The notes: generated by a model not told the origin, from the sequence alone. A stretch of 64,000 bases of DNA from Gammaproteobacteria bacterium (GCA_003645455.1 QNFE01000001.1:10359-74358); one strand, 5' to 3'; shown: positions 13,521-44,012, counted from the first letter of the stretch. Numbers and translations are program-made.

Positions 13521-13526
13521 ATTTTT

Positions 13527-13955: not shown

Positions 13956-14268
13956 AAAAGCACCTTTTTCCACTAAATTCCAAAAAACACCACTATAATG
14001 CAAACAACCCACTAATTTCAATAAAAACTTATAATTAGTTTTTTATTATTGGCAAAAAAATAAATTTATTTATTTTATAATCAATTAGATAGATATGTAA
14101 TTTTAATAAAACACTTAAAATATAAAATTCAACAAAATTTCTACAATAATGACAAAAACTGTCCCTACCATGAATTCAATTAGAATAAAGTGCTTATTAT
14201 TTTCTTAAAAATTAAAACTTGATTTATTAGAAAAATCATATTAAAATATTCGGTTTTGTAAAAATTTT

Positions 14269-26047: not shown

Positions 26048-27409
26048 ATGAATAAAGATTTACAAATTATAATCTTAGCAGCAGGCAAGGGCACACGGAT
26101 GGTGTCCGATAAAGCTAAGGTGTTGCATAAGTTAGCAGGAAAGCCCTTATTAGGATTTGTCATTGAGGCGTCTTTGTCCCTTACAACAGAGGTAATTGTT
26201 GTCGTCGGGCACCAAGCATCAGAGGTTAAAAAATTAAATTATCCTGTTAAATGGGTCCAGCAAAAAGAACAACTTGGCACAGGACATGCAGTGCAAATGG
26301 CAAACCCTTATTTGGATGGCAACAAAAAATGTTTGATTTTATATGGCGATGTGCCACTTATCAAACCTACTACCATAAAAAAACTTGCAGATTTATCGGA
26401 TAAAAATACCATCTCACTTTTAACCTTGATTATGAAAAATCAACACGGTTATGGGCGAATTATCCGCGATGAATCAAACAACATAACCTCAATAGTGGAA
26501 GAAAAAGATGCCAGCGACCTACAAAAACAAATCAAAGAAATCAATACTGGGATTTTATCAGTTACTAATGATAATCTAATTAAATTATTACAAAATTTAA
26601 AATCAGACAACTCACAAGGGGAATATTATTTAACAGATATAATCGCCCAAGCCCATCAAAATGGTTTAAAAACAATCTCGGTGGCATCCCATTCGGTGCA
26701 TGAGGTAGCAGGGGTAAACGACAAAAAACAACTTGCTGTTTTGGAGCGAGTTTATCAACAAACCTGTGCCAAAGATTTAATGGTAGCGGGTTTAACTTTG
26801 TCCGATTATCGCCGTTTTGATTTACGAGGCACTTTAAAATTTGGCATGAATTGTATAATTGATATCAATGTTGTGTTTGAAGGTGATAATAAAATTGGTG
26901 ATAATGTTTATATTGCTCCCAACTGCATTTTAAAAAATGTTGATATAGGGGACAATGTAATCATCAAAGCCAATAGCATTTTAGAGAGTTGCAAGGTGTC
27001 AAACAATGCCACAGTTGGACCTTTTAGCAGGTTGCGCCCAGGGGCAGAGCTTAAAAATAATGCGATGGTAGGAAACTTTGTTGAGGTTAAAAAATCAATA
27101 ATAGGCGAGGACTCCAAAGCATCTCATTTGGCATATATCGGCGATGCCACCATCGGAAAAAATGTCAATGTAGGAGCAGGAGTCATAACCTGTAATTATG
27201 ATGGAGCGAATAAAAATAAAACGATTATTGAAGATGATGTTTTTGTCGGCTCTGATACCCAATTAGTGGCCCCGGTTAAACTCGGCAAAGGTTCCACCAT
27301 CGGAGCAGGCAGCACAATAACGACAAATGTCCCAAAAAAAATGTTAGTTTTATCAAGAATAAAACAAAAAGAAGTGCCGTCATGGCAAAGACCCAAAAAG
27401 AAAGAGTAA
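26048..27409 (+). CDS. glmU: Bifunctional UDP-N-acetylglucosamine pyrophosphorylase / glucosamine-1-phosphate N-acetyltransferase
   Basis: N-terminal nucleotidyltransferase motif (LAAGKGTRM) and C-terminal left-handed beta-helix hexapeptide repeats. 453 aa. Confidence 0.9.
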   Translation: MNKDLQIIILAAGKGTRMVSDKAKVLHKLAGKPLLGFVIEASLSLTTEVIVVVGHQASEVKKLNYPVKWVQQKEQLGTGHAVQMANPYLDGNKKCLILYGDVPLIKPTTIKKLADLSDKNTISLLTLIMKNQHGYGRIIRDESNNITSIVEEKDASDLQKQIKEINTGILSVTNDNLIKLLQNLKSDNSQGEYYLTDIIAQAHQNGLKTISVASHSVHEVAGVNDKKQLAVLERVYQQTCAKDLMVAGLTLSDYRRFDLRGTLKFGMNCIIDINVVFEGDNKIGDNVYIAPNCILKNVDIGDNVIIKANSILESCKVSNNATVGPFSRLRPGAELKNNAMVGNFVEVKKSIIGEDSKASHLAYIGDATIGKNVNVGAGVITCNYDGANKNKTIIEDDVFVGSDTQLVAPVKLGKGSTIGAGSTITTNVPKKMLVLSRIKQKEVPSWQRPKKKE

Positions 27410-27418
27410 AAAAATCCC

Positions 27419-27600
27419 GTCATTGCGAACGGAATTATAAAATCTCAAAAAATCCCGTCATTGCGAGCGGAACGAAGTGTAGCGAAGCAATCTCGTCAAA
27501 ACGGACGGATAATAACGAGCAAAAAGAACCCTCGTCATCGCGAACGAGCTTGCGAGTGTGGCGATCTCATAGTAGCAGACGGATAATAACAATAGAATAC
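27419..27600. repeat. Cluster of about 2.3 tandem copies of an approximately 78 bp element of the 'cccgtcattgcgagcgg...gcaatctc' type in the glmU-glmS spacer
   Basis: Direct repeats 'aaaaatcccgtcattgcgaRcgga' at 27415 and 27444. Units at 27448-27516 and 27528-27597 both end in 'gacggataataac'. Each unit carries an imperfect internal palindrome (attgcgagcg ... cgaagcaat). Confidence 0.6.
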
Positions 27601-27800
27601 AAACCCCATGAGATAACCACGGCGGATTATTATTTGTCTTGCATCGCTTTTATTCGTCCGCCTCGTTATGGCGAATTGTTATTTTTTGTTTGGTAAAAGA
27701 TATGGAATATTCAAAACCAATGGAGCAAATAAAAACAGTTCATGTGTTTGTGGTATTGTATAATAACAAACATTAAGCAGGTAAAAAAAAGGAGTAAAAT

Positions 27801-29630
27801 ATGTGTGGAATAGTAGCGGCAATAACTAATAGAAATGTCTCGTCAATTTTGATTGAGGGGTTGAAAAGATTAGAATATCGAGGATATGATTCAGCAGGGA
27901 TTGCACTGCTTGACGATAACAATAAATTAATTAGAGTTCGCACCAAAGGCAAAGTAGAGGTGTTAGAGCAAGAGTTAAAAAAACAACCATTGTCTGGCAA
28001 AATTGGCATAGCCCATACTCGCTGGGCGACTCACGGCAAACCTACCACCATCAACGCTCATCCACATTTTTCATCTGATAGAGTGGCAATAGTGCATAAT
28101 GGGATTATTGAAAACTATAAAGACTTGCAACAAGAGCTAAAAGAGCACGGTTATATCTGCACCAGCCAAACAGACACAGAAATTGTCGCTCATATGTTAG
28201 ATTTCTTTTTAAAACAAGGTAGTGATTTAAAACAAGCCGTGCAAAAGTCTGTTAAAAAAATCAAAGGTGCTTATGCGATTGTGGCAATGGAGCAAAATAA
28301 CCCACATCAATTGATAGCTTTTAAAAAAGCCTCACCTTTGGTTATAGGGGTCGGGATTGATGAGAATTTTATCGCCTCTGATGCCCCTGCTTTATCTATT
28401 GTGACTAATCGTTTTATTTATCCTGCGGATGAAAATATAATTGTTCTTGATGATAAAAGTGTCCAAATTTATGATAAAAATGACAAACTAATAAAAAGTA
28501 AAATTGTCGATTATACCTTTGATAGTGACCCTATCGGCAAGGGCGGATTTAGCCATTATATGGAAAAAGAAATTTTCGAGCAACCTGCAACATCTGAGCA
28601 AACCTTAGAGGGGCGAATAAGCCATGATAAAACAACGATTGACATCTCCAACAAAATCCCAGATGAGATTTTAAAACAGGTTGAATGTTGTCATATCGTA
28701 GCCTGTGGCACAAGTTATCATGCCGGGATGGTGGCAAAATACTGGTTGGAGCAGTATGCAAAAATCCCCACGAGTATAGAAGTTGCCAGCGAATATCGTT
28801 ATCGCTCAAATATAGTGCCAAAAAATACTTTATATATTACAATCTCCCAATCAGGTGAAACCGCAGACTCCATCGCCGCTTTGAAAAAAGCCCAAAATGA
28901 GTCAAATTATTTATCAACTTTGGTGGTGTGTAATGTCGAACAAAGCACGATGGTGCGAGAGGCAAAATACAACTTAATCACTCGTGCCGGGGTCGAGGTA
29001 GGGGTTGCCAGCACCAAGGCTTTTACAACTCAACTTTTGACTTTGTCAATCTTAACCGCTTCCCTTGCCAAATTAAATAATGATTTTAATGAAAAAGAAT
29101 TTGTTGAATCGCTGGTTCAACTTCCGCTGAAAATTCAACAGGTTTTAGAGCAAAAAGAGCAAATAAATAAACTTTCAACAAATTTTAAACATACCAATTC
29201 AATGTTATTCTTGGGAAGATTGACAGGTTATCCTATTGCTTTGGAGGGCGCACTTAAACTCAAAGAAATATCCTATATTCATGCCGAATCTTATCCTGCT
29301 GGCGAGTTAAAACACGGTCCATTAGCCCTAATAGACGAGAGTTTGCCAACTATTGCTGTTGTTATGTTTGAAAAAAATACCGATAAATTATTAAGCAATT
29401 TAGAAGAGGTAAAATCCCGTGGTGGTGATGTTTATATTTTTGCTGATGAGAGGTTAAAATTAACCGAGGACACACAAACAAAAATAATAAATATCCCAGC
29501 CATTGATAATATGTTAGCCCCTATTTTACACATAATCCCTTTGCAACTTTTGGCATATTATGTTGCTGTGCATCGTGGCACCGATATAGATCAACCTAGA
29601 AATTTAGCAAAATCTGTAACCGTTGAGTAG
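27801..29630 (+). CDS. glmS: Glutamine--fructose-6-phosphate aminotransferase (isomerising)
   Basis: N-terminal MCGIV (Ntn amidotransferase) followed by two SIS domains. 609 aa. Confidence 0.92.
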   Translation: MCGIVAAITNRNVSSILIEGLKRLEYRGYDSAGIALLDDNNKLIRVRTKGKVEVLEQELKKQPLSGKIGIAHTRWATHGKPTTINAHPHFSSDRVAIVHNGIIENYKDLQQELKEHGYICTSQTDTEIVAHMLDFFLKQGSDLKQAVQKSVKKIKGAYAIVAMEQNNPHQLIAFKKASPLVIGVGIDENFIASDAPALSIVTNRFIYPADENIIVLDDKSVQIYDKNDKLIKSKIVDYTFDSDPIGKGGFSHYMEKEIFEQPATSEQTLEGRISHDKTTIDISNKIPDEILKQVECCHIVACGTSYHAGMVAKYWLEQYAKIPTSIEVASEYRYRSNIVPKNTLYITISQSGETADSIAALKKAQNESNYLSTLVVCNVEQSTMVREAKYNLITRAGVEVGVASTKAFTTQLLTLSILTASLAKLNNDFNEKEFVESLVQLPLKIQQVLEQKEQINKLSTNFKHTNSMLFLGRLTGYPIALEGALKLKEISYIHAESYPAGELKHGPLALIDESLPTIAVVMFEKNTDKLLSNLEEVKSRGGDVYIFADERLKLTEDTQTKIINIPAIDNMLAPILHIIPLQLLAYYVAVHRGTDIDQPRNLAKSVTVE

Positions 29631-29836
29631 TTGCTGATTTTTAAGAAGCCACCAGAGCTCCTCCACTGTTGTCTTCTTAAAGATTTACAATTGACAAAAA
29701 TATATTGCTTTACTAATCATGGGGGTTAGTCAGAGCTTCCATAAGGAAACTATGGATAACTGAATATAGCTTAACATAACAAATTGTATCATAGCTGTCG
29801 TATGATTTGCGATCTGTCATCACCTTGCAATTGATG

Positions 29837-31033
29837 TTAGTCAATCAATAAAATTACATCATAGATCGGCAATAAGATTGACATGATAATCCAGCCGACT
29901 AATAAGCCTAAAATAATTGTTAAAACTGGGGTGATTAACGGTTCTATTTTATCAATTTTATCTGTTGTTTGTTTATCGTATAGTTGTTGAATGCTATCGA
30001 TTGAGAGGTTAATCTTACCGCTTTGTTGTCCTATTTTTATCATGGCATAGGCTTCAATATTTAATATTTTTTTCATCGCATCTGCAATCTGTTCGCCTTG
30101 TATAATTTTCTGATAGGCTATTTTCATATATTTTTGGAGATATAGATTGTCAAGCCCATTTATTGAAATATCAAGGCTATCGGCAAAAGAGTGTCCGCTT
30201 TGGTGTAAGGTTGATAAGCAATAAAAAAAACGGCTAAGTTTTGTTTGGTATAAAATATCTCCTATCAAAGGCAGTTTAATAATGAGTCTATCCCATATTA
30301 GGTGAAATTTTTGTGAAGTTTTGAGCATTATTTTTATTATCATGAGTGTTGTTAAAAAAGTAATTAACAAAAATATGCCATAATTTTTTAAAAAACTTGC
30401 AAGAGACAATAAAGCCTTGGTATAAAAAGGCAAAGATGCATCAAAGGATCTGATGAAGCCTGTGAGTTGAGGCACGAGATACCACAACAAAAAGCTTGCA
30501 ACCGCTATTATTACTGTAAATGACAGAATAGGAATTGTAAGGATTTTTTTGATTTTTTTAATATTTTGTTCTTTTTGTTGCAAATAATTCACCAAGTTTT
30601 TTAAAATTAAATCTAATTTAACGCTATCTTCGCCGACCCTGATCATATTGATAAAAACACCATCAAAAGTGCTGGTAAACTTCTGCATTGATTGGCTGAG
30701 TTTCAAGCCGCCTGATACATCTTTATAAAAAATATGCAACATAGCCTGATTGTTGTTTTTTTTTGAAGCATTGAGAGATATTATATGCAAAGATTCTCCT
30801 AACGAGACCCCGGCTTGTAATAAAAATTGTAGTTGTTGGCAAAAGGCAATCAGCTCATCGGTATTCAATGTTTTTTTTGCAAAAAAATTAAAATATTTTC
30901 TTTTTTTGTGGCAGGATAAAAGGGATAGGTTTTTTTTGTCAAGTAGGGTTAAAAGTTGCTCTTTGTTGGTGCAATTTATTACACCGTTAATAGTGTCACC
31001 ATTATCATTAACTGCTTTGTAATTCCACAACAT
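29837..31033 (-). CDS. Type II secretion system F-family protein (PilC/GspF-like), orphan
   Basis: 398 aa with two GspF-type repeats and three transmembrane segments. The N-terminus is PilC-like (YKAVNDNGDTINGVI). No pilB/pilD or gspE partner genes are in the window. Confidence 0.65.
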   Translation of the reverse strand: MLWNYKAVNDNGDTINGVINCTNKEQLLTLLDKKNLSLLSCHKKRKYFNFFAKKTLNTDELIAFCQQLQFLLQAGVSLGESLHIISLNASKKNNNQAMLHIFYKDVSGGLKLSQSMQKFTSTFDGVFINMIRVGEDSVKLDLILKNLVNYLQQKEQNIKKIKKILTIPILSFTVIIAVASFLLWYLVPQLTGFIRSFDASLPFYTKALLSLASFLKNYGIFLLITFLTTLMIIKIMLKTSQKFHLIWDRLIIKLPLIGDILYQTKLSRFFYCLSTLHQSGHSFADSLDISINGLDNLYLQKYMKIAYQKIIQGEQIADAMKKILNIEAYAMIKIGQQSGKINLSIDSIQQLYDKQTTDKIDKIEPLITPVLTIILGLLVGWIIMSILLPIYDVILLID

Positions 31034-31042
31034 AGAATGCCC

Positions 31043-31462
31043 TTAACACTGCTCCCATGGTAGGTTTTCATAACGCCATCCTTCGGCAACACTGCGATGA
31101 TGTTTTTGATCTAATTTGCCCTCAAAACCACCATTGATAACATAAATTGACTTTATGCCTGCTAACGAGAGGCAATCTGCTGCGGCTTTGGAGCGATTCG
31201 TGCTACGGCAAATTAAAAATATTTTTATCTTTTTTGTGGAGTTCATTTGTCGTCCTAAGAGTAGTTTTTTAACCTCAGAGGTAAAATTTTTATTAACATC
31301 CCAATCTGGGTAATCAATCCAGGCAATATGGATGGCTCCCACTGGATGACCTACCATTAGAAATTCCATATCGGAGCGAACATCAATCAGGATAGTATCG
31401 GTATCATTTTGTAATTGTTTGTAGGCATCTTGTGGTTTTATTGTTTGATAAGCATTGTTCAT
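31043..31462 (-). CDS. Rhodanese-like domain protein
   Basis: Active-site loop 'CRSTNRS' in a single-domain rhodanese of 139 aa. Confidence 0.7.
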   Translation of the reverse strand: MNNAYQTIKPQDAYKQLQNDTDTILIDVRSDMEFLMVGHPVGAIHIAWIDYPDWDVNKNFTSEVKKLLLGRQMNSTKKIKIFLICRSTNRSKAAADCLSLAGIKSIYVINGGFEGKLDQKHHRSVAEGWRYENLPWEQC

Positions 31463-31468
31463 ATTTAT

Positions 31469-32374
31469 TTATGTTTTTAAAAAATTAAGATAGTTATCAT
31501 AGCGAAATCTGGCAATAGTTTTATTTTTAACAGCATCTTTTACCGCACAATTCGGTTCATTTATGTGATAGCAATTTTTATATTTACAGCCACAAGATAC
31601 ATCAAAAAATTCAACAAAACCATTTTTAATGTCTTTCTTGTCAATTTTGCTACCAATAAAATCTCGCAAACCTGGGCTATCTATAATTTTTGAATTGTTG
31701 ATAGCATCATACATCTGAGTTGTGCAGGTTGTATGCCGTCCCACTCCTTTATCGTTTGTTTTACAGGTTTCAATAACATTTTCATTTTTAGTTAAGGCAT
31801 TGGTTAGAGTAGATTTTCCTACCCCGGACTCTCCTGTTAACATATTTATTTGTTGGGGTTGAAAACTTTTAATAAAGCCATCATAAGAAAAAATATCCAA
31901 AGCAGAGACAAGAAAAACATCCATAATTTTTGAATAACAATCAACGAGTTTTTCTATATCTTTTTTTGTCATGTCCCTTGTTTTGTGTTTTTTTTGACTG
32001 TTGTTTATTAAATCAATTTTATTGATAATTAACACAGGATATATATTTTGTTTGTGACAAACTATGATTATCTTATCAATAAGTTTGTTATCAATCCCAG
32101 GGTTTACAGAGCAAATTATTAATAAACGGTCAATATTTGCTGATAAATTTTGCCGAATTTGATTTTCTTTTATTCTGTAAAGATAGTTTTTTCTATCTAA
32201 TCTTTTGTTTATTTTATAGTTGCCGTTATCATTTATTAACTCAACAAAATCACCACATAAAACTGAGCCTGCACTATTTTGTAACTTTGCCTCAATAATT
32301 TCTTTATTATTTATTGATACCTGCACTTGTTTGCCAAAAATTGCGACAATTTGTGCGTTATCATATGGTGACAT
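31469..32374 (-). CDS. rsgA: Ribosome small-subunit-dependent GTPase A
   Basis: Circularly permuted GTPase motifs (GESGVGKSTL ... GRHTT) plus a C-terminal zinc finger (CGCKYKNCYHINEPNC). Confidence 0.85.
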   Translation of the reverse strand: MSPYDNAQIVAIFGKQVQVSINNKEIIEAKLQNSAGSVLCGDFVELINDNGNYKINKRLDRKNYLYRIKENQIRQNLSANIDRLLIICSVNPGIDNKLIDKIIIVCHKQNIYPVLIINKIDLINNSQKKHKTRDMTKKDIEKLVDCYSKIMDVFLVSALDIFSYDGFIKSFQPQQINMLTGESGVGKSTLTNALTKNENVIETCKTNDKGVGRHTTCTTQMYDAINNSKIIDSPGLRDFIGSKIDKKDIKNGFVEFFDVSCGCKYKNCYHINEPNCAVKDAVKNKTIARFRYDNYLNFLKT

Positions 32375-32375
32375 T

Positions 32376-32669
32376 TTATTTTTTAAATTTGTAATAAGTG
32401 TTGTTTAAATAATCAGTTACAGATATTATTTCATCATCAAAAAATTCAGCCTCGGCTTGATGAGAGCACATCTTGACTCTTGAATGTAGTTTTTGATAAT
32501 TTTCTATGCCACTTTTTTGGTTAATATAGGGCTGATCTGTATGACACTTCAAACATTTATCGGCGTGTAAAAATTGTCCGTCTGCTTCACTGTCGTCTGA
32601 TGCTATGACATTAAAAGATAAAGATAAGTATAATCCTAATAAAGTAATTGTTTTAGATGAAAGTTTCAT
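32376..32669 (-). CDS. Small exported protein with a single CxxCH haem-binding motif (possible monohaem cytochrome c-like protein)
   Basis: N-terminal signal peptide and one CLKCH motif. 97 aa. No recognisable family beyond that. Confidence 0.35.
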   Translation of the reverse strand: MKLSSKTITLLGLYLSLSFNVIASDDSEADGQFLHADKCLKCHTDQPYINQKSGIENYQKLHSRVKMCSHQAEAEFFDDEIISVTDYLNNTYYKFKK

Positions 32670-33916
32670 ATAGATGTTCTCCTAAGGTTTTTAATCCGCA
32701 AACTCGCAGGCGGATGTGAGTTATAAAACGACGAATATAAACTATCTGGTGTGAGGGTGCTGGCATTTTCTTTATACATTTGCACCAAGGCATCAACAAG
32801 ATCATTGGCATCTGTTTTATCGGCGGCATAATCATCGGCTTGATATTCATTCTTGCGTGACAGGTATGAAAAAACCGGTGACAGCAGAAAAGTAAAAACT
32901 GGCATTATTAAGGAAAATAGCAATAATGCCATAGCATTATCAATAGACGGTATAGCAAAACTTTGAAAAAACCAAAGTTTATTGTAAATAAATCCTAAAA
33001 TAGCCAAACCTATTAAAGAAAATGCCATTGACATTATAATGCTTTTTAAGATATGTTTGTGTTTAAAATGCCCTAATTCGTGAGCTAAAACCGCTTCAAT
33101 TTGTTGAGTATTGAGAGTTTTTAGCAGGGTATCAAAAAAGACAATTCTTTTATTTTTTCCAAAACCGCTAAAATAAGCATTGCCATGTCCTGATCTTTTT
33201 GATCCGTCCATTATATAGATTCCTTTGGATTTAAAACCACACTTTTTTAAAAGATTATTGATAGAATTTATCAATATATCATCATCTAATAACTTAAATT
33301 TGTTAAATATTGGAGCAATTATAGTAGGGTAAACCCACATTAAAACGAGGCTAAAACCTGCATAAACAAAAAAAGCCCACAGCCACCATAAATTACCTGC
33401 CATGCCCATAAGGTATAAGATAACCCACAATAAAGGAGCACCTATTAGTATTCCCAGCCCCAAACCCTTTATTATGTCAATAAAAAAAGTTCCATAGGTA
33501 GTGCGATTAAATTTATACCGCTCTTCAATTACAAACGTGTTATACCAACTAAAAGGCAGGCCTATTAACATGTTTATAGCGACAAAAAGTCCGATTATAG
33601 TCAAGCCACTTAGTATAGGCGAGGATATGTTCCACATCATAACAACACTATATAGATAAGATAAGCCACCACCTAATGTCCAAAACAGCAAAACTATAGC
33701 ATCAAACACAATTTCAAAATTAGAAAATTTAAGTTTTGTGGTGGTGTAGTCTGCCGCTTTTTGATGATCCTTTAAGTTTATCTTATCGCTAAATTCAATT
33801 GGCACCGAGTTTTTATGGGTAGCAACAGATAATTTTTGACGATAATTCAAATATAATCTGACAGATAAACTGACAACAAAAAAGACTAAAAAAGCATAAA
33901 TAAATAACTCACTCAT
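32666..33916 (-). CDS. M48 family (Ste24/HtpX-like) zinc metalloprotease
   Basis: HEXXH motif (AHELGHFKHKH) in a multi-pass membrane protein of 416 aa, the length of a Ste24-type peptidase. Confidence 0.75.
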   Translation of the reverse strand: MSELFIYAFLVFFVVSLSVRLYLNYRQKLSVATHKNSVPIEFSDKINLKDHQKAADYTTTKLKFSNFEIVFDAIVLLFWTLGGGLSYLYSVVMMWNISSPILSGLTIIGLFVAINMLIGLPFSWYNTFVIEERYKFNRTTYGTFFIDIIKGLGLGILIGAPLLWVILYLMGMAGNLWWLWAFFVYAGFSLVLMWVYPTIIAPIFNKFKLLDDDILINSINNLLKKCGFKSKGIYIMDGSKRSGHGNAYFSGFGKNKRIVFFDTLLKTLNTQQIEAVLAHELGHFKHKHILKSIIMSMAFSLIGLAILGFIYNKLWFFQSFAIPSIDNAMALLLFSLIMPVFTFLLSPVFSYLSRKNEYQADDYAADKTDANDLVDALVQMYKENASTLTPDSLYSSFYNSHPPASLRIKNLRRTSI

Positions 33917-33978
33917 AAACTAATCCTTGCAATAAATACAGGTATTATAACATTTTTATTAAATAGTTTTGCATAAAA

Positions 33979-34815
33979 TTAACCATGGTTAAAAAATGCT
34001 ATTGTAACCCTGTCTATTGATGAGGCATCTTTGATACTTGTTATTTTTTGATAATTATATTTTGCAAGTTCTGCTCTGATTTTTGATGAGTGATTATAAC
34101 CGTGCTCCAAGATTATATAACCTTGCAAAAAAGAAGATGCTACTGAGATAATTTTTTTTAAATCTGCCAGACCATTATCATCTGAAAATAAGGCATTTGG
34201 CGGTTCATATAAAGTCTCATTATTCATAAGGTTTTTATCTTTAAGACTCACATATGGAGGATTGCTTATTATTAAATCAAATTTTTGAAGGGGAATGTTG
34301 GCAAACCAGTTGCTGTGAATTGTTGTTATGTTAGATACATTATGAAGCTTTATGTTTTTATGACATAGTTTTATAACAGATAAACTATTGTCTGTGGCTA
34401 CAATAGTTGATTTTGGATAGAGTTTTGCAAGAGTGATAGCGATACATCCTGTGCCTGTGCCAAGCTCTAAAATTTTAAGATTTTCTTTTTTATTATTGTG
34501 AGTCTTTAACACTGTATCTATTATTAACTCTGTTTCAGGTCGAGGTATTAAAGTGTTTTTATCGACCTTAAATTTTAAGCCATAAAATTCTTTTTCACTG
34601 ATTATATAAGCTATGGGCTTGCCTTTTTTTCTTTGCTGTATAAGTCGCTTTAGTTTTTTGTTCTGCTCTTCATTGAGGATGTAATCACTATTGGCATACA
34701 AAAAACTCCGCGGTTTTTTAAGCACAAATTTTAACAATATATCTATATCTAATAGATCTAAGTTATTATTTTGTTTTTTTATGTCATCAATACTAAGGTT
34801 AATGCCGATATTCAT
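33979..34815 (-). CDS. prmC: Peptide chain release factor N5-glutamine methyltransferase
   Basis: HemK family signature (LELGTGTGCIAI ... IISNPPYV). Confidence 0.85.
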   Translation of the reverse strand: MNIGINLSIDDIKKQNNNLDLLDIDILLKFVLKKPRSFLYANSDYILNEEQNKKLKRLIQQRKKGKPIAYIISEKEFYGLKFKVDKNTLIPRPETELIIDTVLKTHNNKKENLKILELGTGTGCIAITLAKLYPKSTIVATDNSLSVIKLCHKNIKLHNVSNITTIHSNWFANIPLQKFDLIISNPPYVSLKDKNLMNNETLYEPPNALFSDDNGLADLKKIISVASSFLQGYIILEHGYNHSSKIRAELAKYNYQKITSIKDASSIDRVTIAFFNHG

Positions 34816-35507
34816 AAAATATTTTTTAATTTAGTGTTGAAGCCCTGTTGCATATGTGATATTTGGGCTAAAAAAAGCTCGGCTGTGGCGATAGCATCTT
34901 CAATGGCACTATGGGCATTATATTTCGGAAGACTTAAATTGCTGCGAATATTGAATAATCGTAATTGATTGGCAACGACAGGAATATTTCGCCGATCTAA
35001 CTCTCTTTTTTCTATTTTCATTGTGTCCGCAAAAATAACTGGAATTTTATAATCATATAATTTTTGACAAGTTTTTTGGAGGTGAGTTTTTTCGATGATA
35101 TCGTGATGGGCTACGACGACTCTACCTTTTATAACTTCTAATAATTTTGGCAATATATCCTCGACAACAAAACCATCTTGTAATTTATCATCTGTAATCT
35201 GGTGGACAGTTACGGCATCTTTTTTTAATTTTTGTTTGACATTTATTAAGTAATGGCAGCTTGCTCCTAAATTGATTTTATTATTTTTAATGAGTGTCCA
35301 GCCGAAGCTTAATATGACATCTTTTTTTAAATCAAGCCCTGTGGTTTCAAAATCAAGCACAATAAATTCTAGATCTTTGATGGTTTTATTTTTATCCACC
35401 AAAGGAGATTTTAAGTATTTTTGCAAGATAGGGTGGGTATTTTTTTTTAAAAGATATTTGCGATATGTTGTAGGTGGCAACAAAAAGTATAAAAAATTTC
35501 TTATCAT
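34812..35507 (-). CDS. DnaQ-like 3'-5' exonuclease (DEDDh family)
   Basis: Exo I motif (DFETTGLD) and a later H-x4-D motif. 231 aa. Abuts the downstream end of the cNMP/CBS/DUF294 gene. Confidence 0.75.
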   Translation of the reverse strand: MIRNFLYFLLPPTTYRKYLLKKNTHPILQKYLKSPLVDKNKTIKDLEFIVLDFETTGLDLKKDVILSFGWTLIKNNKINLGASCHYLINVKQKLKKDAVTVHQITDDKLQDGFVVEDILPKLLEVIKGRVVVAHHDIIEKTHLQKTCQKLYDYKIPVIFADTMKIEKRELDRRNIPVVANQLRLFNIRSNLSLPKYNAHSAIEDAIATAELFLAQISHMQQGFNTKLKNIL

Positions 35508-35509
35508 TT

Positions 35510-37384
35510 TTATACCAATCTCTCGGTATGATAGGCAGAACTCATAGCGGACTGCATCGTGCGAACAATTTCAAAGGCATCTTTTAAATGTTTTCTCTCC
35601 AAGGAGGATAGGGTGTCAGGCTCGACATAATTATTGATTGTCTGTTTTGCTTCTACTTGTTTTAACTGTTGATTAAGGCGAATTGTTGAGATAAAATCAT
35701 ATGACTCTAATAAATCTTTTTTGCCTTTTTTGCTAAGGGTTTTGGCTTTTGATGATAATTTTAACCTATCTATCGTGTTAATTGTATCGGTGATACCAGC
35801 TGATAGGGCATACACACGAGCCAAGTCTGTAATGGGAGTGACTCCTCTTTTTTTCATATTGAGCGCTTTGGATTCTGTGCCGTGTTTTTCTAAAACAAAA
35901 GATCTAAAAATTCCTAATGGAGGATGATAGTGTAGGGCATTAGCTGCCATATGGGATAAAAATATACTATTGCCTTTGATTTTTTTACCAATGGATTGTT
36001 TTAAATCATCTAATAAATCCTGATTGCCATAGATAAAGTCTAAATCAAAAAAAATCGAAGATAACATCAGAGCTTTGGGTTCCGGAGTGTGAATCCATTT
36101 ATCAAAATACCCCTTCCAAACATCAAGACTTACACACCATAGAGGGTTGGTTGCCATCACATCGCCAGGGCAATACACATAACCACATTCATTTAAACCA
36201 TCACAGACAAATTTGCTAATTTTCTTAAAATATTCGCTGTGTTTTTCGTCATCATAATTATTATCAAGGATTATTAAATTATCTTGGTCAGAAAAGGCAG
36301 TTTGTTCTCCTCGTGCCTGTGAGCCTGCGACCACCCAGGCATAATCAACCTCAGATATGCCAAATTCTTTTTCAGCGAGAATCAATAATCTACGATTAAT
36401 ATCTCGTCCGATAGAGCTTATGGCAGATCCTATATCATAGGCTGTCATCCGATTTCTAACCATCGAGGCAAAAGTTGGCGGAATCTGCAAGGCAAGTTTG
36501 GCTAATTCATCAACAGAATTAGCACGATTTATTTCATTAACAAGATAAATAGTGTTATAACTTTGGGCGCGAATTAAATCATTAACTGTGATAATGCTTA
36601 AAACTTTTTGATTCTCATCAACAATAGGTAAACGATGAATATTGTGTTTTGTCATCAACAGCAAAGCATCAGAGGCACGAGTGTTTTTATCAATCGTAAT
36701 CAAAGATGTTGTCATAACAGATTTAATTGGTTGTTTGATATCAACAGCAGAAGAGACAACTTTGGTGCAAAATGTGCGATCTGACACTATGCCAGATAAT
36801 TTATCCTCATCCATTATCAAACATGAGGTAACTGAATTTTCTGTCATTTGTATCGCAACATTTTGAATTGAGGTGTTAAGATCTAATTTTAAAATGTGTT
36901 GTTTGTCTTCGACTAATTCTGATGCACTTTTTGTGAATAAAATATTAGCTGTGGTATCGTGCACCTCTCGTAGGGCAATTTTTAAACGGGAACGTTTTTT
37001 ACGATCAAAAAATGCTTTTATTTGGGGGAATTCTACCGCAATATCAAGCAAAGTTTTGGCAGGAATTTCATACAATAGGCAATCTTCAATGGCACGGATA
37101 GGCATGGTAACCTCGCCTGTTACAAAAGCGGACCTATAACCAAACCAATCCCCTCCATCAAAGTGGCTGTATAATTTGCCATCACTATCTAAAACCTCAA
37201 CCGCTCCTGTTCGCAACAAATAAACGGTTTCATTTGTCTGCCCTGACTTTAAAATTATTTCACCACGGCGGGCATATTCAATCTTTAAGCTTTTAGCAAC
37301 AATATGTAAAGCATCAGTGGATAATTTATCCAAAGGAGGACAACTTTTTATGTAGTCAATAATTTCAATTTGTTCAATTTCCAT
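35510..37384 (-). CDS. Cyclic-nucleotide-binding / tandem CBS / DUF294 nucleotidyltransferase-domain protein
   Basis: Three regions in series: an N-terminal cNMP-binding fold, a central CBS pair, and a C-terminal GlnD-like nucleotidyltransferase (DUF294) with its substrate-binding domain. 624 aa. Confidence 0.75.
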   Translation of the reverse strand: MEIEQIEIIDYIKSCPPLDKLSTDALHIVAKSLKIEYARRGEIILKSGQTNETVYLLRTGAVEVLDSDGKLYSHFDGGDWFGYRSAFVTGEVTMPIRAIEDCLLYEIPAKTLLDIAVEFPQIKAFFDRKKRSRLKIALREVHDTTANILFTKSASELVEDKQHILKLDLNTSIQNVAIQMTENSVTSCLIMDEDKLSGIVSDRTFCTKVVSSAVDIKQPIKSVMTTSLITIDKNTRASDALLLMTKHNIHRLPIVDENQKVLSIITVNDLIRAQSYNTIYLVNEINRANSVDELAKLALQIPPTFASMVRNRMTAYDIGSAISSIGRDINRRLLILAEKEFGISEVDYAWVVAGSQARGEQTAFSDQDNLIILDNNYDDEKHSEYFKKISKFVCDGLNECGYVYCPGDVMATNPLWCVSLDVWKGYFDKWIHTPEPKALMLSSIFFDLDFIYGNQDLLDDLKQSIGKKIKGNSIFLSHMAANALHYHPPLGIFRSFVLEKHGTESKALNMKKRGVTPITDLARVYALSAGITDTINTIDRLKLSSKAKTLSKKGKKDLLESYDFISTIRLNQQLKQVEAKQTINNYVEPDTLSSLERKHLKDAFEIVRTMQSAMSSAYHTERLV

Positions 37385-37409
37385 GATTGTTTTTAAAAAA
37401 ATAAAATGG

Positions 37410-37784
37410 CTATTTAATAATTAAATCCAATGCTTTGGATAGAGTTAAGAAAAAACCAATCATTGCGATTAACATCACCATATTTTTATTCAAAGCCTGT
37501 TGAATTATTGTTTTTATGTCGCTTTTTAAAAGAGCAAATTCACCTTTTAAACCAGTAAACTCATCTTTTAAACCAGTAAACTCATCTTTTAAACTTGCTA
37601 CATCAGAGGTTACCTCATCTAATTTTTGATCCAAGTGATTGATATGGTTATATTGAGATTTTAACAATAAGGTATTTATATCTTCTTGTTTTAAGCCCTC
37701 ACCACGGACGAATCGCTCCTCTATTTCTTTTAATTTTGGAGTTATCATCTCGATTAACATACTGTCTATATTAGTTTTATTCAT
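37410..37784 (-). CDS. Coiled-coil protein with C-terminal transmembrane helix (DUF1640-like)
   Basis: Heptad-rich sequence with an in-frame 21 bp tandem duplication encoding LKDEFTG twice, and a hydrophobic C-terminus. Confidence 0.45.
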   Translation of the reverse strand: MNKTNIDSMLIEMITPKLKEIEERFVRGEGLKQEDINTLLLKSQYNHINHLDQKLDEVTSDVASLKDEFTGLKDEFTGLKGEFALLKSDIKTIIQQALNKNMVMLIAMIGFFLTLSKALDLIIK

Positions 37785-37827
37785 AGGTTTTTATAAATCA
37801 TAAATAGGGTAGCATAACAAAAAATAA

Positions 37828-38805
37828 TCAACAAATATCAAAAATGTTTTTAATTAAAACAGGACCACGGTAAATTAAACCTGTAAAAATCTGCACCAGA
37901 GAGGCACCAGCTTTGAGTTTATCATCGGCAGATTTTTTATCCATAATTCCACCTGAGGCGATTATTGGTAAATCTCCTTGATATAAATCTGCTAATTTTT
38001 TGATTATTTTGGTTGTAGTCTCGTTTAATGGTTTGCCTGATAAACCGCCGGTTTGTTGATAACTGTGTTGGACGGTGGTGTTGGTGGCAATAATGCCGTC
38101 CATTTTGCTGCCTCTTATAATTTTGGCAACTGTTATTAGTTGAGTATCATCCATATCTGGGCTTATTTTTACGACTAAGGGCGTCCATTTTTTGGTTTGG
38201 TTGAATATTTTTATTTGCTCTTGTTTTAATCTTGTAAGGAGCTTTTGAAGGTTAGCAGGTTTCAACAAATCTCGTAAATTTGGAGTATTAGGAGATGATA
38301 AATTTATACTAATATAATCGCAATGTTGGTATGAAACTTGCAAACAATATAAATAATCGTCAATGGCATTCTCGTTTGGAGTGTTTTTATTTTTGCCGAT
38401 ATTAATCCCGATAATTCCACTAAAAGAACTTGATTTTAATTTTTTAATCGCATATAAAATCCCTTTGTTATTAAAACCCATCCGGTTGATGATAGCTTGT
38501 TCTTTTTTATAACGAAAAAGCCTCGGTTTGTCGTTACCTTGTTGTGGTTTTGGAGTTAAAGCGCCGATTTCAATACAACCAAACCCAAGCGATTCTAACG
38601 CATCAATATAATCACCATTTTTATCAAAACCTGCTGCTAACCCAATTTTGTTAGGAAACTGCAAACCCATAACCTCCACAGGTTTTTTATATTCAACCAA
38701 GCTAAAATTAGCCCAGATTTTCAGCATTTTTAGGCTAAAAGAGTGAGCGACCTCAGGGGGTAGGGCAAACAAAAAAGGACGAGATATTTTATAAAGTGTT
38801 TTCAT
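37828..38805 (-). CDS. pyrD: Dihydroorotate dehydrogenase (quinone), class 2
   Basis: Membrane-associated N-terminus typical of class 2 DHODH, 325 aa. FMN-binding motifs are present (GLAAGFDKNG, GGIMDKKSA). Confidence 0.9.
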   Translation of the reverse strand: MKTLYKISRPFLFALPPEVAHSFSLKMLKIWANFSLVEYKKPVEVMGLQFPNKIGLAAGFDKNGDYIDALESLGFGCIEIGALTPKPQQGNDKPRLFRYKKEQAIINRMGFNNKGILYAIKKLKSSSFSGIIGINIGKNKNTPNENAIDDYLYCLQVSYQHCDYISINLSSPNTPNLRDLLKPANLQKLLTRLKQEQIKIFNQTKKWTPLVVKISPDMDDTQLITVAKIIRGSKMDGIIATNTTVQHSYQQTGGLSGKPLNETTTKIIKKLADLYQGDLPIIASGGIMDKKSADDKLKAGASLVQIFTGLIYRGPVLIKNIFDIC

Positions 38806-38863
38806 AGGTTAGCTGTCCCCAATAATTTTTATATCATCAGCTGGTGCTTGTTTGTAATTTTTT

Positions 38864-39961
38864 CTAATCATAGTTTTCGTCCAATAGTTTAATTAGAGTT
38901 TTTGCATCTGGTAAAATATTTTTATATTTTTTTGGCAGTTGTGAGCTGGTATTAAATGTAGCAACCCCCATAGCTTTATTAAAATCTCTGAATGCAAATT
39001 CTACGGTTTTATTTTTCTTTTCTTTGCAAAGGATTATACCTATTGATGGGTTTTCGTGTTCTTGTTTTATGTATTCGTCAAGGGCAGAGAGATAAAAATT
39101 CATCTTTCCTAAATATTCTGGTTTGAATTTTCCTGTTTTTAACTCTATGGCTACTAATGCTTGTAAATTACGATTGTAAAACAATAAATCAACAAAATAT
39201 TCTGTATCATCAACTATTATTCTGTATTGGTTGCCAATAAATGCAAAATCAGCCCCAAGTGTTGAGATAAATTTTTTAATATTTTGCACGATTTCATTTT
39301 CTAAAACTCTTTCGTTGTCTTGCTCTTCGTCTGTAAGACTTATAAAATCTAACAAATAATGGTCGTTAAAGTTTTGTAATGATTTTTGTCTTTGTTGGGT
39401 GTCACTTATTGTTTGGTTAAAATTATTTGGCAACATTCCCTGTTTTTCAAATAATTTATTTTTTAGATGCTGTTTTAAAACTCTAACAGTCCAAAACTCG
39501 TCTGTTGATTTTTTGATGTAAAACAACCTCTCGTTGATTTTTTTTGTCTTGGCGATTATCTCGCAGTGAGCGGTAAAACTTAATTTTGTAAAACAATCAA
39601 CTAATAAATTTATATCAATATCTAATTGGTCAGTCAATGACTGGCTAATTGATTTTTTGTTATTTTCGGTAATTTCATCTATAAAATATAAATTCCATTC
39701 TTCATAAAATGCTCTCATATTTTTTAAATTTGAATATGAAAATCCTCTTAAACCACTCAATTCAATTTGTAAATCGTCTGATAGTCTTTTGATGGTTTGA
39801 TTGCCCCATTTTTCAGTTGCAACTTTTTTGGATATTATTTTTCCTACATTAAAATATAAGTTTAATAACTCTTTGTTAGCAACTTTGGCAACTTCATAAC
39901 GACTTTTTATTATTTGTTGCTTTAAATTTTTAAGAATCTTGATATAATTGTCAATAATCAT
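38864..39961 (-). CDS. YhcG/DUF1016 family PDDEXK nuclease
   Basis: N-terminal YhcG-type region (LSGLRGFSYSNLKNMRAFY). C-terminal PD-(D/E)xK core (DLLFYNRNLQALVAIELKTGKFKPEYLGKMNFYLSALDE). Confidence 0.7.
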   Translation of the reverse strand: MIIDNYIKILKNLKQQIIKSRYEVAKVANKELLNLYFNVGKIISKKVATEKWGNQTIKRLSDDLQIELSGLRGFSYSNLKNMRAFYEEWNLYFIDEITENNKKSISQSLTDQLDIDINLLVDCFTKLSFTAHCEIIAKTKKINERLFYIKKSTDEFWTVRVLKQHLKNKLFEKQGMLPNNFNQTISDTQQRQKSLQNFNDHYLLDFISLTDEEQDNERVLENEIVQNIKKFISTLGADFAFIGNQYRIIVDDTEYFVDLLFYNRNLQALVAIELKTGKFKPEYLGKMNFYLSALDEYIKQEHENPSIGIILCKEKKNKTVEFAFRDFNKAMGVATFNTSSQLPKKYKNILPDAKTLIKLLDENYD

Positions 39962-39966
39962 TATGT

Positions 39967-40176
39967 TTATCCCTGTTTTAATTTTATAAAAATATTGACA
40001 CTAACCCTTTGCAACATCTTAAACATGCCATCACCATCAGGACACTTTTCCGCTATGTTGTGACTCTCATGCAAATCCAAAATATAAATTTTATCAAAAC
40101 CTGCTGCCAACCCAATTTTATTAGGAAATTGCAAAGCAAACAAAAAAGGACGAGATATTTTATAAAGTATTTTCAT
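39967..40176 (-). pseudogene. Mosaic gene relic: pyrD 5' end fused to a pyrD internal piece and a piece of the Type IIG RM gene interior
   Basis: The 69 aa ORF reads MKILYKISRPFLFAL (pyrD aa 1-15), then QFPNKIGLAAGFDK (pyrD aa about 48-61), then IYILDLH...CPDGDG...VSVNIFIK (RM enzyme aa about 600-645). At DNA level it is a diverged copy of 38762-38805, then 38620-38664, then 41690-41812. Confidence 0.7.
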
Positions 40177-40217
40177 TTTAAATTTTTATTACACCAAAGT
40201 TTCATAAGAAGGACCTA

Positions 40218-40318
40218 AATAATTCTATAAAATCCGTCACTGCGAGACAAAGCCCTGTCAGTCTCGGATACTACCAAGAGATTGCCGCGGTCGCAAGCTC
40301 GCTGCAATGACGGGTTTT
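40218..40318. repeat. About 100 bp element with terminal inverted repeats (aaatccgtcactgcgag ... ctcgctgcaatgacgggttt), related to the glmU-glmS spacer repeats
   Basis: Shares the 'ccgtcaYtgc...gcgagcttgcga...gcaatctc' core with the 27419-27600 elements. It sits immediately 3' of the RM gene stop. Confidence 0.55.
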
Positions 40319-40319
40319 T

Positions 40320-43300
40320 TTATTTATCCTCAATAATTTTTATTTTATCAATCTGTTGCATTATTTTATTTGTTTCAAAAAGCACATAAATAATTTTTTG
40401 ATAGTGAGTTATGTCTGTGTTTGATAACTCGTAATCTTGGTCTTTGCGAGATTTGAGCCATTTTTGTAAAGGCTGATAACCGCCGATAAAAAAATTCCAA
40501 GCGATAGATGGCACATTATCAAAATATTGATTTTTATTTATCCACACTTTTCCTGTGCCATCTTTTTCTTTGCTTTCTATAAAAGTATGTTTTTCTACTG
40601 TCGCATCTCCATCTCCTTTAAATGGACTTATTATATCCGTTAATTCTATATTTTCCATTAAATGCAACTTGCGAAGTGTTGCACCTTTTTCAATACATTG
40701 CCAAAATGTTTTTTTATCCGCAGGATATGGCACACGAGGGAAATCAATTTTTAAAAACTCTTGGTATTTCTTGCGGTATTTTGGTGAATGCAACACAGCA
40801 TAAATATAATCCAAAATATCAATCGGCGATAGGTAATTTTGAATTTTTTCTGCTTTAAATTCTAATTTTAAATTGTCTGCTATTTTTTCAACAATTTTCA
40901 TATCCAAGTTAGGTTTTCTACTCTTTTCTGTGAACATTCCATCTGATTCTTTGTCTGGGTAAAGATATAACGGACAAACATAATCTCCTCCTTGCATGCC
41001 AGGGCGAGACCAACTTCTAAAATCAATTATATTTGCAGAAACAAAACAAGGTGAAGCATTTTTCTCTACAAAACCTCTTTTAAAAACCAATCCAATATTT
41101 TCAGTTTTTAGAAAATGAGACATAACCTCGCCTCGTGGCATACACAAAAAACCTTTTGATTTTTTGGAATAATAAGTCCATCTATTATCAAATGGACGAT
41201 ATGATATTTTTGTTATTTTTTTAAAATCAACTCCTGTTTTAATTAAATCTTTTTTTGCATATGAAATTTTCCAGTCACGAACATCCTTGCCTAATTTAAA
41301 ATGCTCTCTTGCCTCCTCGTCATCTAATTTTAAAAATTTTTGAATAGTTTTTTTAACCTCATCTGCTGTTTTATGAATAGTAAAGTTATCACGAGCTGTT
41401 ACTATGCCAACAGAATTGATAGGAAATAAATCTGTCAAAACAAAACCTTTATCATATTCGGCTTGGGCTTGGTAATCTTTGGGTTTAAAAAAATAATAGG
41501 GTTCTTGTGGTTTTAATTTTTCAAATTGAATACTTGTCAAATCATTTTCTAATAAAAAACCATATTTTGCTTGGCGTTTTCCGTAGAGATCAAAATGAAA
41601 AACTTTGGCTAATTTATTTGATAAGTTTTTGTTTTTTGCTGACAAGGGGACATGTCCCCTTGCTAAACCATGTCGTTTTTTCTTGATGAAAATATTGATA
41701 CTGACCCCTTGCATAATATCAAATACATTTTGATCTTTTGTGCCATCAGGGCAGACTTCCTTTTTTTTACTGTTGCCGTGTAAATCTATGATATAAATTT
41801 TATCATAGGTTTTTAAGAGATTGTGCCTCATGCCACGAAAGGTGGGGTTATCTAAAAAGCCGTGAGGGTTGATGAAGGCTAAAATTCCTTCGCCATTTTT
41901 TTCTATTAAATTTTGTGAATATTTAATAAACTTTACATAATCATCGTTAAGCCATTTTGAATTTTTTTCTTGTAATTTGCCACCTGTTGGCTCTTTTTTA
42001 TAATCATCTAATAGGTTTTCTATCCATTTGCCTTTGTTTGATGATTCACCGGCATAAGGCGGATTGCCTAAGACAATCATAACAGGGGTGTCTTTTTTAA
42101 CTCTATCGGCGGCACGAGACTCATCAGATAACCATTTGGCTCCAAATAATGACAAACCAGCATATTCGTGTTCTGGCTCTAAACTATTCGTCAAAAATAC
42201 ATTAAAACGATTATTGTTTTTGTCGTCTTTTTGATAACCTGTTGTTTTTAATAACATTTGTAATTTAAGATGACACATAGCATAGGGGGCAAGCAGTAAT
42301 TCAAAGCCGTTTAATCTGGGAATTAAATCTTCATCAACATATTTATGCCAACCGCCGGAGTTCGTGGTTTTTATGATATCGGCGATATATTTTATCACCT
42401 CACATAAAAAAGTGCCTGTGCCGCAGGCAGGGTCTAAGATTTGCACTTTATGAACTTGTTTGGTTGTTTTGGTTTGAGTTTTAGGGTCGTCAAATTTTAT
42501 ATTAACCATGCTTGTGTCACAAATCCCATCGCTTATTTTAAAGTCTTTTTTTAAAACATCATCACAAGCTTTGATGATAAATTTAACAACAGGTTCCGGG
42601 GTATAATAAACTCCACGAGATTTTTTTAATTGGGGGTTATAATTATGCAAAAATGTTTCATAAAAATGAATCATCGGATCTTGTGTGGCAGTTTTTTTGC
42701 CAAAGTCTTGTAGGATATTAGATAAATTAGCATGACGGAAAATATCAACCAAAGCATCAACAATCCAGATAATTTCTGTGTCTAAATTTGCACCGCCAAC
42801 ATATTCAAACAAATGTCGTAAAAATGGATTAGTGCGAGGCATAAGCTCCATTGCCTCATATCTTGAAAATGATTGCGGTGTTTTGTCGTGTAATCTGGCA
42901 GCAAACAAACCATAAGTTATAGTCTGGGAATAAATATCAGCAAAACTTGCCTCATCTAAGTCTTTTATTAGTATTTTTTGAAAACTAGTAAATTGCTCAT
43001 AAAGATTAGTGTTTTTGCAATCATCGCCGCAGGTTAAAGCTTTGTAAATTGCATCTTTTAATGTTTGGGCTTTGAGTGCCATAAGCGAGGCTAATTTTTC
43101 GGCTGTGTTTATTGTTGTGCCGTTATAAGCACAAAAGTTTTTTAAAAGATTTATAAAAGGTGCAAAGTTATCATTGATGGGTTTTATTTTATTGTTGGTT
43201 ATCGTAGCAATTTGAATAGTTTCAAGTTTTTTGATTTTATTGTCATCAGTTTTTTGATAGAATCTAAATTCAATATAATTAGTTGTCATTACATTGTCAA

Positions 43301-43999: not shown

Positions 44000-44012
44000 T
44001 TATGCAAAGGTT

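Follow-up and report, generated by a model that had tools for sequence, protein, structure and literature searches.

The stretch analyzed here, referred to as the window, comprises 64,000 nucleotides (nt) from a Gammaproteobacteria bacterium (GCA_003645455.1, QNFE01000001.1:10359-74358), and this study concerns two loci within it at which short repeats directly follow a gene. The first locus lies between glmU (26048-27409, + strand; stop codon 27407-27409) and glmS (27801-29630, + strand), the latter beginning with MCGIV and having an AGGAG ribosome-binding site ahead of it. The second follows a gene for a 1096-amino acid (aa), restriction-modification-like protein of the N6-methylase/Type ISP C-terminal domain type (40320-43610, - strand; stop codon 40320-40322), beyond which lies a gene for a DUF1016/YhcG nuclease-family protein (38864-39961, - strand). 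These assignments were obtained with Pfam, which bore out the glmU, glmS, and restriction-modification calls of an earlier reading made from the DNA alone (hereafter, the sequence-only reading). With a probability of roughly 0.8, the repeats at both loci are degenerate members of the superfamily of CGTC-tagged repetitive extragenic palindromes (REPs) (Di Nocera, De Gregorio and Rocco, 2013, BMC Genomics 14:522; PMC3733652). The 12.6 kb separating the loci consists of housekeeping genes, and the loci are therefore two separate insertions rather than two ends of one element. The window belongs to a 98-kb contig (k141_393510) of the ENA assembly ERZ27227324 and has a G+C content of 33%. The nearest GlmU among 5.8 billion proteins was only 62% identical, indicating that the source organism has no close sequenced relative.

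An arm of these repeats would comprise an unpaired CGTC head, a stem opening with A-T and T-A pairs (ATTGC...GCAAT), an interior forming a small hairpin, and a 3-nt tail, which is CCA in most relatives and CTC in the low-GC subfamily of the window. Directly 3' of the glmU stop codon, three such arms lie on the same strand (27416-27446, 27454-27494, and 27531-27568) with a period of 77 nt. A repeat search of the window found four AAAAAATCCCGTCATTGCGARCGGAA-like copies, at 27409, 27447, 27485, and 27524, and inspection resolved the array into a short unit of 38 nt (27409-27446) followed by two units of 77 nt (27447-27523 and 27524-27600). The two longer units are 76% identical, gaps included; Tandem Repeats Finder reported no array because the units are too diverged. 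Unit 1 (27410-27446, + strand) starts 1 nt past the glmU stop and consists of an A-run (27410-27415; AAAAAT after the stop) and a short degenerate arm (27416-27446; CCCGTCATTGCGAACGGAATTATAAAATCTC), which has kept its head and CTC tail and lost the 3' half of its stem. This arm has one mismatch to the core CCGTCATTGCGAGCG, is 94% identical to the arm of unit 2 over 31 nt, and gave an nhmmer E-value of 0.064. Unit 2 (27447-27523, + strand) contains the best preserved arm (27454-27494; CCCGTC-ATTGC-GA..GAA-GCAAT-CTC), which carries the exact core, and a spacer (27495-27523) holding GACGGATAATAAC together with CTCGTCAAAACG, which may be a collapsed 3' end. In unit 3 (27524-27600, + strand), whose spacer also holds GACGGATAATAAC, the arm (27531-27568; CTCGTC-ATCGC-..GCTTGC..-GCGAT-CTC) has a stem changed on both sides, from ATTGC/GCAAT to ATCGC/GCGAT.

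Unit 3 is followed by a degenerate inverted partner (27601-27674, + strand; ATGAGAT..., TTATTATTTGTCT, ...CCTCGTTATGGCGA), where inverted repeats were found. Together, 27532-27674 form a single long imperfect hairpin (-42.9 kcal/mol vs -35.7 for shuffled sequences; z -1.78), which 15 of 200 shuffles equaled; this segment is a decayed head-outward pair. The locus would represent a grouped layout, in which three same-strand arms are reiterated with a piece of spacer and close in a decayed pair. The sequence-only reading had described about 2.3 tandem units of about 78 bp filling the spacer between the two genes. The repeated units are real, but they form a same-strand cluster of arms with units of 38, 77, and 77 nt, and the array fills the 391-bp spacer (27410-27800) only in part, since it ends as the degenerate inverted pair near 27674. 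The last ~125 nt of the spacer hold the glmS ribosome-binding site and a TATAAT box recognized by eye; a promoter scan gave no TATAAT call. A 104-aa open reading frame (ORF; 27382-27696, + strand) reads across the array. It had been regarded as spurious and repeat-encoded, and we reached the same view: its translation includes exactly the peptide quoted in that reading, it has no Pfam match, and the ENA source record calls no gene there.

At the second locus, we found an inverted pair of arms of 81 bp (40234-40314), 5 nt past the stop codon of the 1096-aa gene. An element with terminal inverted repeats had been proposed here, after the stop of the restriction-modification gene, and it exists; its extent is 81 bp rather than the ~100 bp (40218-40318) first given. 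Arm A (40234-40265, + strand; CCGTC-ACTGC-GAGACAAAGCCCTG-tCAGT-CTC) has an ACTGC/CAGT stem variant. A spacer of 12 nt (40266-40277; GGATACTACCAA) separates it from the long arm B (40278-40314, - strand; CCCGTC-ATTGCAGCG-AGCTTGCGAC-CGCGGCAAT-CTC), in which a 9-bp stem with one mismatch encloses a 10-nt loop holding a GC-TT-GC mini-hairpin. The terminal stem of the pair is imperfect (CCGTCAYTGC/GCARTGACGG), and the automated repeat search missed these terminal repeats. The pair folds at -32.7 kcal/mol, compared with -25.7 for shuffled sequences (z = -2.15), and would correspond to a complete head-outward heterodimer, the equivalent of a REPIN. Between arm B and the stop codon lies a T5 run (40315-40319; A5 on the - strand), so that the layout of TAA, A-run, and CCCGTC is common to the second locus (- strand) and the 3' side of glmU. 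At both junctions (27407-27421 and 40309-40322), TAA is followed by 5-6 A (or T) and these by CCCGTCAT. Ahead of units 2 and 3 the A-run recurs, and it may be either a part of the element or a target preference.

The arms of the two loci resemble each other. The arm of unit 3 and the minus-strand arm B are equal at 30 of 37 positions (~81% over 37 nt). With up to 3 mismatches, the window contains CCGTCATTGCGAGCG five times, whereas 0.34 occurrences would be expected and no shuffle out of 100 gave five; chance similarity was rejected on this count. Four of the five matches fall inside the two loci. The sequence-only reading had been made to depend on the existence of further copies and on more than about 12 bp of similarity between the loci. 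It stands on both counts, because very many copies exist elsewhere, as described below, and the similarity between the loci extends over about 40 nt. No third locus was found in ~81 kb of the contig (the window plus an extension of ~17 kb), and a general search for hairpins preceded by CGTC gave matches at chance level except for arm B. About 8 kb before the window start, an intergenic stretch (L243:20370-20400) contains GCAATTCAATGACGGAAGTATCGTCATGC with a head-inward ATGACG/CGTCAT palindrome, which may be a tiny two-arm remnant or chance (nhmmer E 6).

The anatomy of the family was established from 87 non-redundant pairs outside the window. The usual form is a palindromic pair, CGTCATTGCGAG-CGNAGC-GAAGCAATCCAG, followed by a variable spacer and then CTGGATTGCTTC-GTCGCTTCGCTC-CTCGCAATGACG. 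The short arm reads CGTC / ATTGC / GA / GC-GNA-GC / GAA / GCAAT / CCAG, and base N of its loop is free (A 35, C 21, T 9, G 5 in the alignment of L003-L240). In the long arm, the mini-hairpin is replaced by GA-[GC...GC hairpin]-GAC, which varies in length and sequence while its stems are still complementary. The DNA heptamer d(GCGNAGC) is classically known to form a very stable mini-hairpin, and its presence would fit an element that acts at the level of single-stranded DNA. Unlike arms were combined in 65 of the 87 pairs (heterodimers). Neighboring arms outside the window were head-outward in 144 cases, on the same strand in 36, and head-inward in 17.

Stem variants argue that each arm forms a stem. 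Among the outside pairs, changes on both sides of the stem were found for ATCGC/GCGAT (five times) and ACTGC/GCAGT (once), along with ~8 one-sided changes; two-sided variants are about as common as one-sided ones, which supports a real, structurally constrained stem in each arm. The window itself shows both compensated variants, ATCGC/GCGAT and ACTGC/CAGT. Within a pair, the tails of the two arms vary together. The tail is CCA(G) in most outside copies, and it is CTC in every one of the five window arms as well as in other low-GC copies such as L052, L146, and L252-L254. The base preceding CGTC was C or T in 86% of cases. Low-GC outside loci lay between unidirectional genes in 32 cases, convergent genes in eight, and divergent genes in two.

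Searches with the outside copies returned copies at both window loci. An nhmmer profile of outside arms matched 27454-27495 with an E-value of 2.4e-9. A covariance model (R1) built solely from the 87 outside pairs matched 40235-40312 over its full length (21.5 bits, E 8.5e-4) and 27456-27503 with 13.4 bits (E 0.19). An exact 23-mer of arm B, GAGCTTGCGACCGCGGCAATCTC, is also present in the JGI contig L252, and the pairing of an ATTGC/GCAAT arm with an ACTGC/GCAGT arm, as in the window, recurs in L253 and L257. Arrays in which one or more arms precede a complete pair, like 27410-27674, also occur in L052/L248, L184, and L253. Four same-strand arms with a spacing of 35-36 nt lie in a metagenome-assembled genome of the Eubacteriales Family XIII (JAISKC010000053.1; L166:890-1030), three of them of the ATTGCGAG...GCAAT type and one a classical CGTC REP with a perfect stem, CGTC-ATTGCGGG-CTCCGA-CCCGCAAT-CCA. 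This array is a direct link between window-type arms and classical CGTC REPs.

The family is widely distributed. Its core, CGTCATTGCGAGCG...GCAATC, was found in at least 120 IMG/VR contigs and in at least 120 contigs of a one-genome-per-species set, across many phyla. Proteobacterial hosts among the matches listed were Bradyrhizobium, sphingomonads, Micavibrio, Coxiellaceae, Legionellales, Lysobacterales, Rhodoferax, Azoarcus, and a deltaproteobacterium; other hosts among them were Bacteroidales, Chitinophagales, Hymenobacter, Fibrobacter, Omnitrophota, Eubacteriales, Planctomycetota, Chloroflexota (Dehalococcoidia and Anaerolineae), and Melainabacteria. Plasmids of Novosphingobium, Methylosinus, Methylobacterium, Fischerella, and Hymenobacter also carry the core, which is never annotated there, and one megaplasmid of Novosphingobium resinovorum has it at no fewer than 40 places. 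Deposited phage genomes gave three records with partial matches only, so that spread by phages is weakly supported despite the many IMG/VR matches. In related GC-rich phage-like contigs (L055:1160-2510, L074, L014, L018, L028, L053, and L101), the terminase gene, the portal gene, and the head gene after them are separated by short gaps in which pairs lie. Contigs L052 (the same as L256) and L247/L248 (IMG/VR and JGI; ~38-40% G+C) contain at least 10 arms in 10.6 kb, with repeated arrays of an arm, TGCTTTAAT, an arm, and a pair. This density could reflect a hotspot or a subfamily that is presently expanding.

The sequence-only reading had spoken of a dispersed REP/MITE-like family. The REP-like character and the many copies elsewhere are borne out; the likeness to miniature inverted-repeat transposable elements (MITEs) is not. 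Were the repeats MITEs, they would be deletion derivatives of insertion sequences, moved by a DDE transposase that acts on terminal inverted repeats and makes target-site duplications. The 81 bp at 40234-40314 with inverted ends and the dispersed, multi-copy family would suit such an origin. However, target-site duplications occurred at chance level in the 87 outside pairs (2-mers, 8 vs 5.4 expected; 3-mers, 1 vs 1.4), and the window pair 40234-40314 has none, its flanks being AAAAT and TTTTT. Single arms and same-strand arrays are common, which suits REPs and not MITEs. A further likeness to REPs is that each end consists of an arm that forms a hairpin and bears a conserved tetranucleotide left unpaired. 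Nor does any transposase recur near the copies. Using tblastn with six RAYT/TIRYT proteins (E <= 1e-3), we found no match in the window (some of whose ORFs are unannotated), in the contig extensions, or in ~255 loci (~2.1 Mb). Among 1064 clustered ORFs, the only recurrent neighbor proteins were phage terminase, portal, and structural families, from related IMG/VR contigs. A MITE origin is therefore very improbable. The suggestion of the sequence-only reading that the repeats mark recombination-prone spots received no support either; the one published statement that bears on it is the general one that REPs can be targets of insertion sequences (PMC3733652).

We compared the window copies with the properties of CGTC-tagged REPs given in the defining study (Di Nocera et al., 2013; PMC3733652). 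According to that study, a unit has an unpaired CGTC head (sometimes TGTC or CCTC), a stem of 8-9 bp opening with A-T pairs, a loop of 4-5 nt, and an unpaired tail of about CCA; some families of Bradyrhizobium, Kosmotoga, and Mesotoga have atypical loops. The units occur chiefly as head-outward pairs 1-100 bp apart, often heterodimers, between unidirectional or convergent genes and near the upstream 3' end. They frequently give rise to spurious small ORFs, they have no dedicated transposase, and REPs in general can be targets of insertion sequences. In the window, all five arms begin with (C)CGTC, at 27417, 27455, 27533, and 40235 on the + strand and at 40312 on the - strand. The four arms that still have a stem show A-T at its first position and, at its second, T-A or, in the two compensated variants, C-G. 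At 40234-40314, the two arms form a head-outward heterodimer around a spacer of 12 nt, and the glmU-glmS locus belongs to the minority of same-strand clusters and includes a decayed pair. Both loci lie between genes of the same direction (glmU and glmS, + strand; the 1096-aa gene and the DUF1016 gene, - strand), and the distance from the stop codon is 6 nt to the head after glmU and 5 nt to the element after the 1096-aa gene.

Several observations weigh against assignment to this superfamily. Units 1 and 3 had no significant E-value with either the nhmmer profile or model R1. The published stem length is matched only loosely: arm B has a 9-bp stem with one mismatch, and in the arms of units 2 and 3 the stem is limited to five Watson-Crick pairs, after which come G·A mismatches and a long interior. 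The window interiors of 10-20 nt exceed the published loop length, single arms fold no better than shuffles, and the folding energy of the whole array is likewise no better than that of shuffles (z 0.13). The study describes same-strand clusters as rare, and the glmU-glmS locus is one. From its table of intragenic peptides, we decoded the families CGTC-1 (VIPAKAGI), CGTC-3 (VIAGLDPAIH), and CGTC-4 (VIPWLDHGI); compared by their peptides only, none of the three has a ATTGCGAG...GCAAT interior. Finally, we know of no demonstration that CGTC elements are mobile, and none of an enzyme that mobilizes them. The direct link provided by the Eubacteriales array, the shared head and gene-end position, and the covariance match at the second locus stand on the other side.

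The same hairpins might be functional terminators or mRNA-stabilizing 3' stem-loops, that is, a recruited repeat whose presence would be explained by its function instead of selfish spread. RNA-level roles have been proposed for REPs in the literature (PMC3733652), and both loci begin 5-6 nt past a stop codon. The 40234-40314 pair folds better than its shuffles, with T7 following on the + strand and AUUUUAU on the - strand, and a terminator scan called three sites in 27200-27900 against 0.7 expected. However, the minus strand carries all three of these sites in the array, antisense to both glmU and glmS. The scan called no site at the second locus, where the strong T-run (40315-40321) is antisense to the flanking genes; the array lacks excess folding energy, and mutations set the copies apart from the family consensus. 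We thus consider retention for such a function unlikely. Degenerate REPs at these positions would still be transcribed as hairpins of the 3' untranslated region or of an intercistronic stretch, and they may stabilize the mRNA upstream of them or serve as weak terminators. The pair at the second locus, with AUUUUAU on the strand of the 1096-aa gene and U7 on the opposite one, could act as a weak bidirectional terminator or stabilizer.

The length of the spacer before glmS (391 bp) is unusual, and its location between glmU and glmS would suit a cis-regulatory RNA or a small-RNA target controlling glmS, comparable to the glmS ribozyme or the GlmZ target region. Such control has only the slimmest probability here. 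In the window, no match reached the threshold of any Rfam family, the glmS ribozyme and GlmZ/GlmY among them, the array shows no excess folding energy, and the same sequence family stands beside unrelated genes in many phyla. Moreover, the nearest relative lacks the spacer: in JGI 3300079590 (L244:1523-1526), whose GlmU is 62% identical, glmU and glmS are 2 bp apart. Because of this difference, the 391-bp spacer plausibly arose by insertion and local reiteration, although a relative at 62% identity is too distant for the comparison to count as proof, which also tells against our interpretation. The GlmU of this relative ends in a lysine-rich tail, the same as in the window. The contig of P0003 has no adjacent glmS and was uninformative as an empty site, and an exact 34-mer from the end of glmU had no match in JGI metagenome contigs.

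By analogy with GTAG REPs and REPINs, CGTC REPs would be non-autonomous elements, probably copied as single-stranded hairpin DNA by a trans-acting enzyme encoded elsewhere, and this copying would leave no target-site duplication. They may persist mainly just 3' of stop codons because they do little harm there. Neutral relics, as opposed to active or recruited elements, are the most likely reading of the copies in the window, since every copy is mutated and only two loci occur in ~81 kb of the contig. A more far-reaching possibility is that the ATTGCGAG/GNA-mini-hairpin type is a distinct, still-active replicator, moved as single-stranded DNA by an unrecognized, widely conserved host or phage enzyme. 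The ~30-nt arm, kept nearly identical across phyla and prophage-like contigs with no linked transposase, would be consistent with it. In that case, the mechanism might have left its footprint in the arrays in which an arm, whole or partial, precedes a short spacer and a complete pair (27410-27674 in the window; L052/L248, L184, and L253). Such a footprint could arise, for instance, when an element inserts into an existing copy or when templates are switched there, and the window would be a decayed witness. We regard this possibility as doubtful.

For annotation, degenerate CGTC-tagged REPs at both loci mean that the 104-aa ORF should not count as a gene, that the long glmU-glmS spacer would be the product of repeat insertion or expansion and not a regulatory RNA, and that the element after the restriction-modification-like gene would be a common repeat and not a signal specific to that system. 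More widely, CGTC-type REPs are not known to have a mobilizing enzyme, yet the near-identity of the arm spans Alphaproteobacteria, Bacteroidota, Chloroflexota, Cyanobacteria, and relatives of Firmicutes. The window, with decayed copies of a known repeat class, adds little on this point.

Several other features of the region were recorded. Defense and toxin-antitoxin genes are grouped around the second repeat locus (38864-44267) and farther along the contig. Those beside the repeat encode the DUF1016/YhcG nuclease, the 1096-aa methylase/Type ISP-C protein (no Pfam family in its first ~300 residues), and a PIN-domain protein, together with an 84-aa ORF; in the contig extension (L242:725-2638 and 13176-14936), AAA_14/DUF4143, a nucleotidyltransferase pair, and GmrSD are encoded. 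A 21-nt tandem repeat at 37524-37594 (3.4 copies, 90% matches) lies inside an ORF on the - strand (37410-37784) and encodes LKDEFTG heptads; the 124-aa protein has no Pfam family and a hydrophobic C-terminus.

Regarding known systems, Rfam, including the glmS ribozyme, GlmZ/GlmY, and CRISPR repeats, gave no match at the gathering threshold, either for the window or for 11 loci that hold canonical copies, and only sub-threshold chance matches for one canonical pair. Literature searches with the DNA and peptide strings of the repeat returned nothing relevant. A CRISPR array was rejected, as no Rfam CRISPR match reached threshold and the units are unequal, and a relation to tRNA or tmRNA was rejected after a check. 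MITEs such as Correia, Nezha, and Chunjie are similarly small, non-coding, and dispersed, with inverted ends, but have terminal repeats derived from insertion sequences and target-site duplications, neither of which was seen here. The GTAG REPs, BIMEs, and REPIN-RAYT systems (E. coli REP; Pseudomonas fluorescens REPINs; Bertels and Rainey, 2011) are more similar: they have imperfect hairpin arms of ~30 nt with an unpaired tetranucleotide, form inverted pairs with short spacers, leave no target-site duplication, lie extragenically near 3' ends, and include singlets as remnants of pairs. They differ in their tag, GTAG instead of CGTC, and in having a single-copy RAYT gene flanked by repeats, which is absent both here and from the published accounts of CGTC elements. 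In addition, REPIN-RAYT systems are described as lineage-specific and vertically inherited, whereas the window-type arm is nearly identical across phyla.

Within the CGTC superfamily, Neisseria dRS3 and Rickettsia RPE-4 and RPE-6, which the defining study assigns to CGTC-1 and CGTC-4 (Di Nocera et al., 2013), share the layout CGTC-AT...AT-CCA, occur singly, paired, and clustered, and can be read through by ORFs. Their stem and loop sequences (ATTCCCGC... and ATTCCGTGG...) differ from the window type, and RPEs often lie in frame within real genes, in contrast to the window, where the array is crossed by a spurious ORF only. Among the families decoded from the peptide table of that study, the closest is CGTC-3, derived from VIAGLDPAIH as CGTC-ATTGCCGGG-CTTGA-CCCGGCAAT-CCA, which has the outer CGTCATTGC...GCAATCCA in common with the window type and a different interior. 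Relative to the superfamily, the common interior here is ATTGC-GA-[GC-GNA-GC]-GAA-GCAAT rather than a perfect stem of 8-9 bp with a 4-5 nt loop, long arms contain GA-[GC...GC hairpin]-GAC, and the window tail is CTC instead of CCA. The likeness extends to the CGTC head, the ATTGC.../...GCAAT opening of the stem, the 3-nt tail, a predominance of head-outward pairs, many of them of unlike arms, the position at gene 3' ends, spurious small ORFs, and the lack of an associated transposase, and the host ranges overlap in Bradyrhizobium, Novosphingobium, Micavibrio, relatives of Coxiella, and Bacteroidetes.

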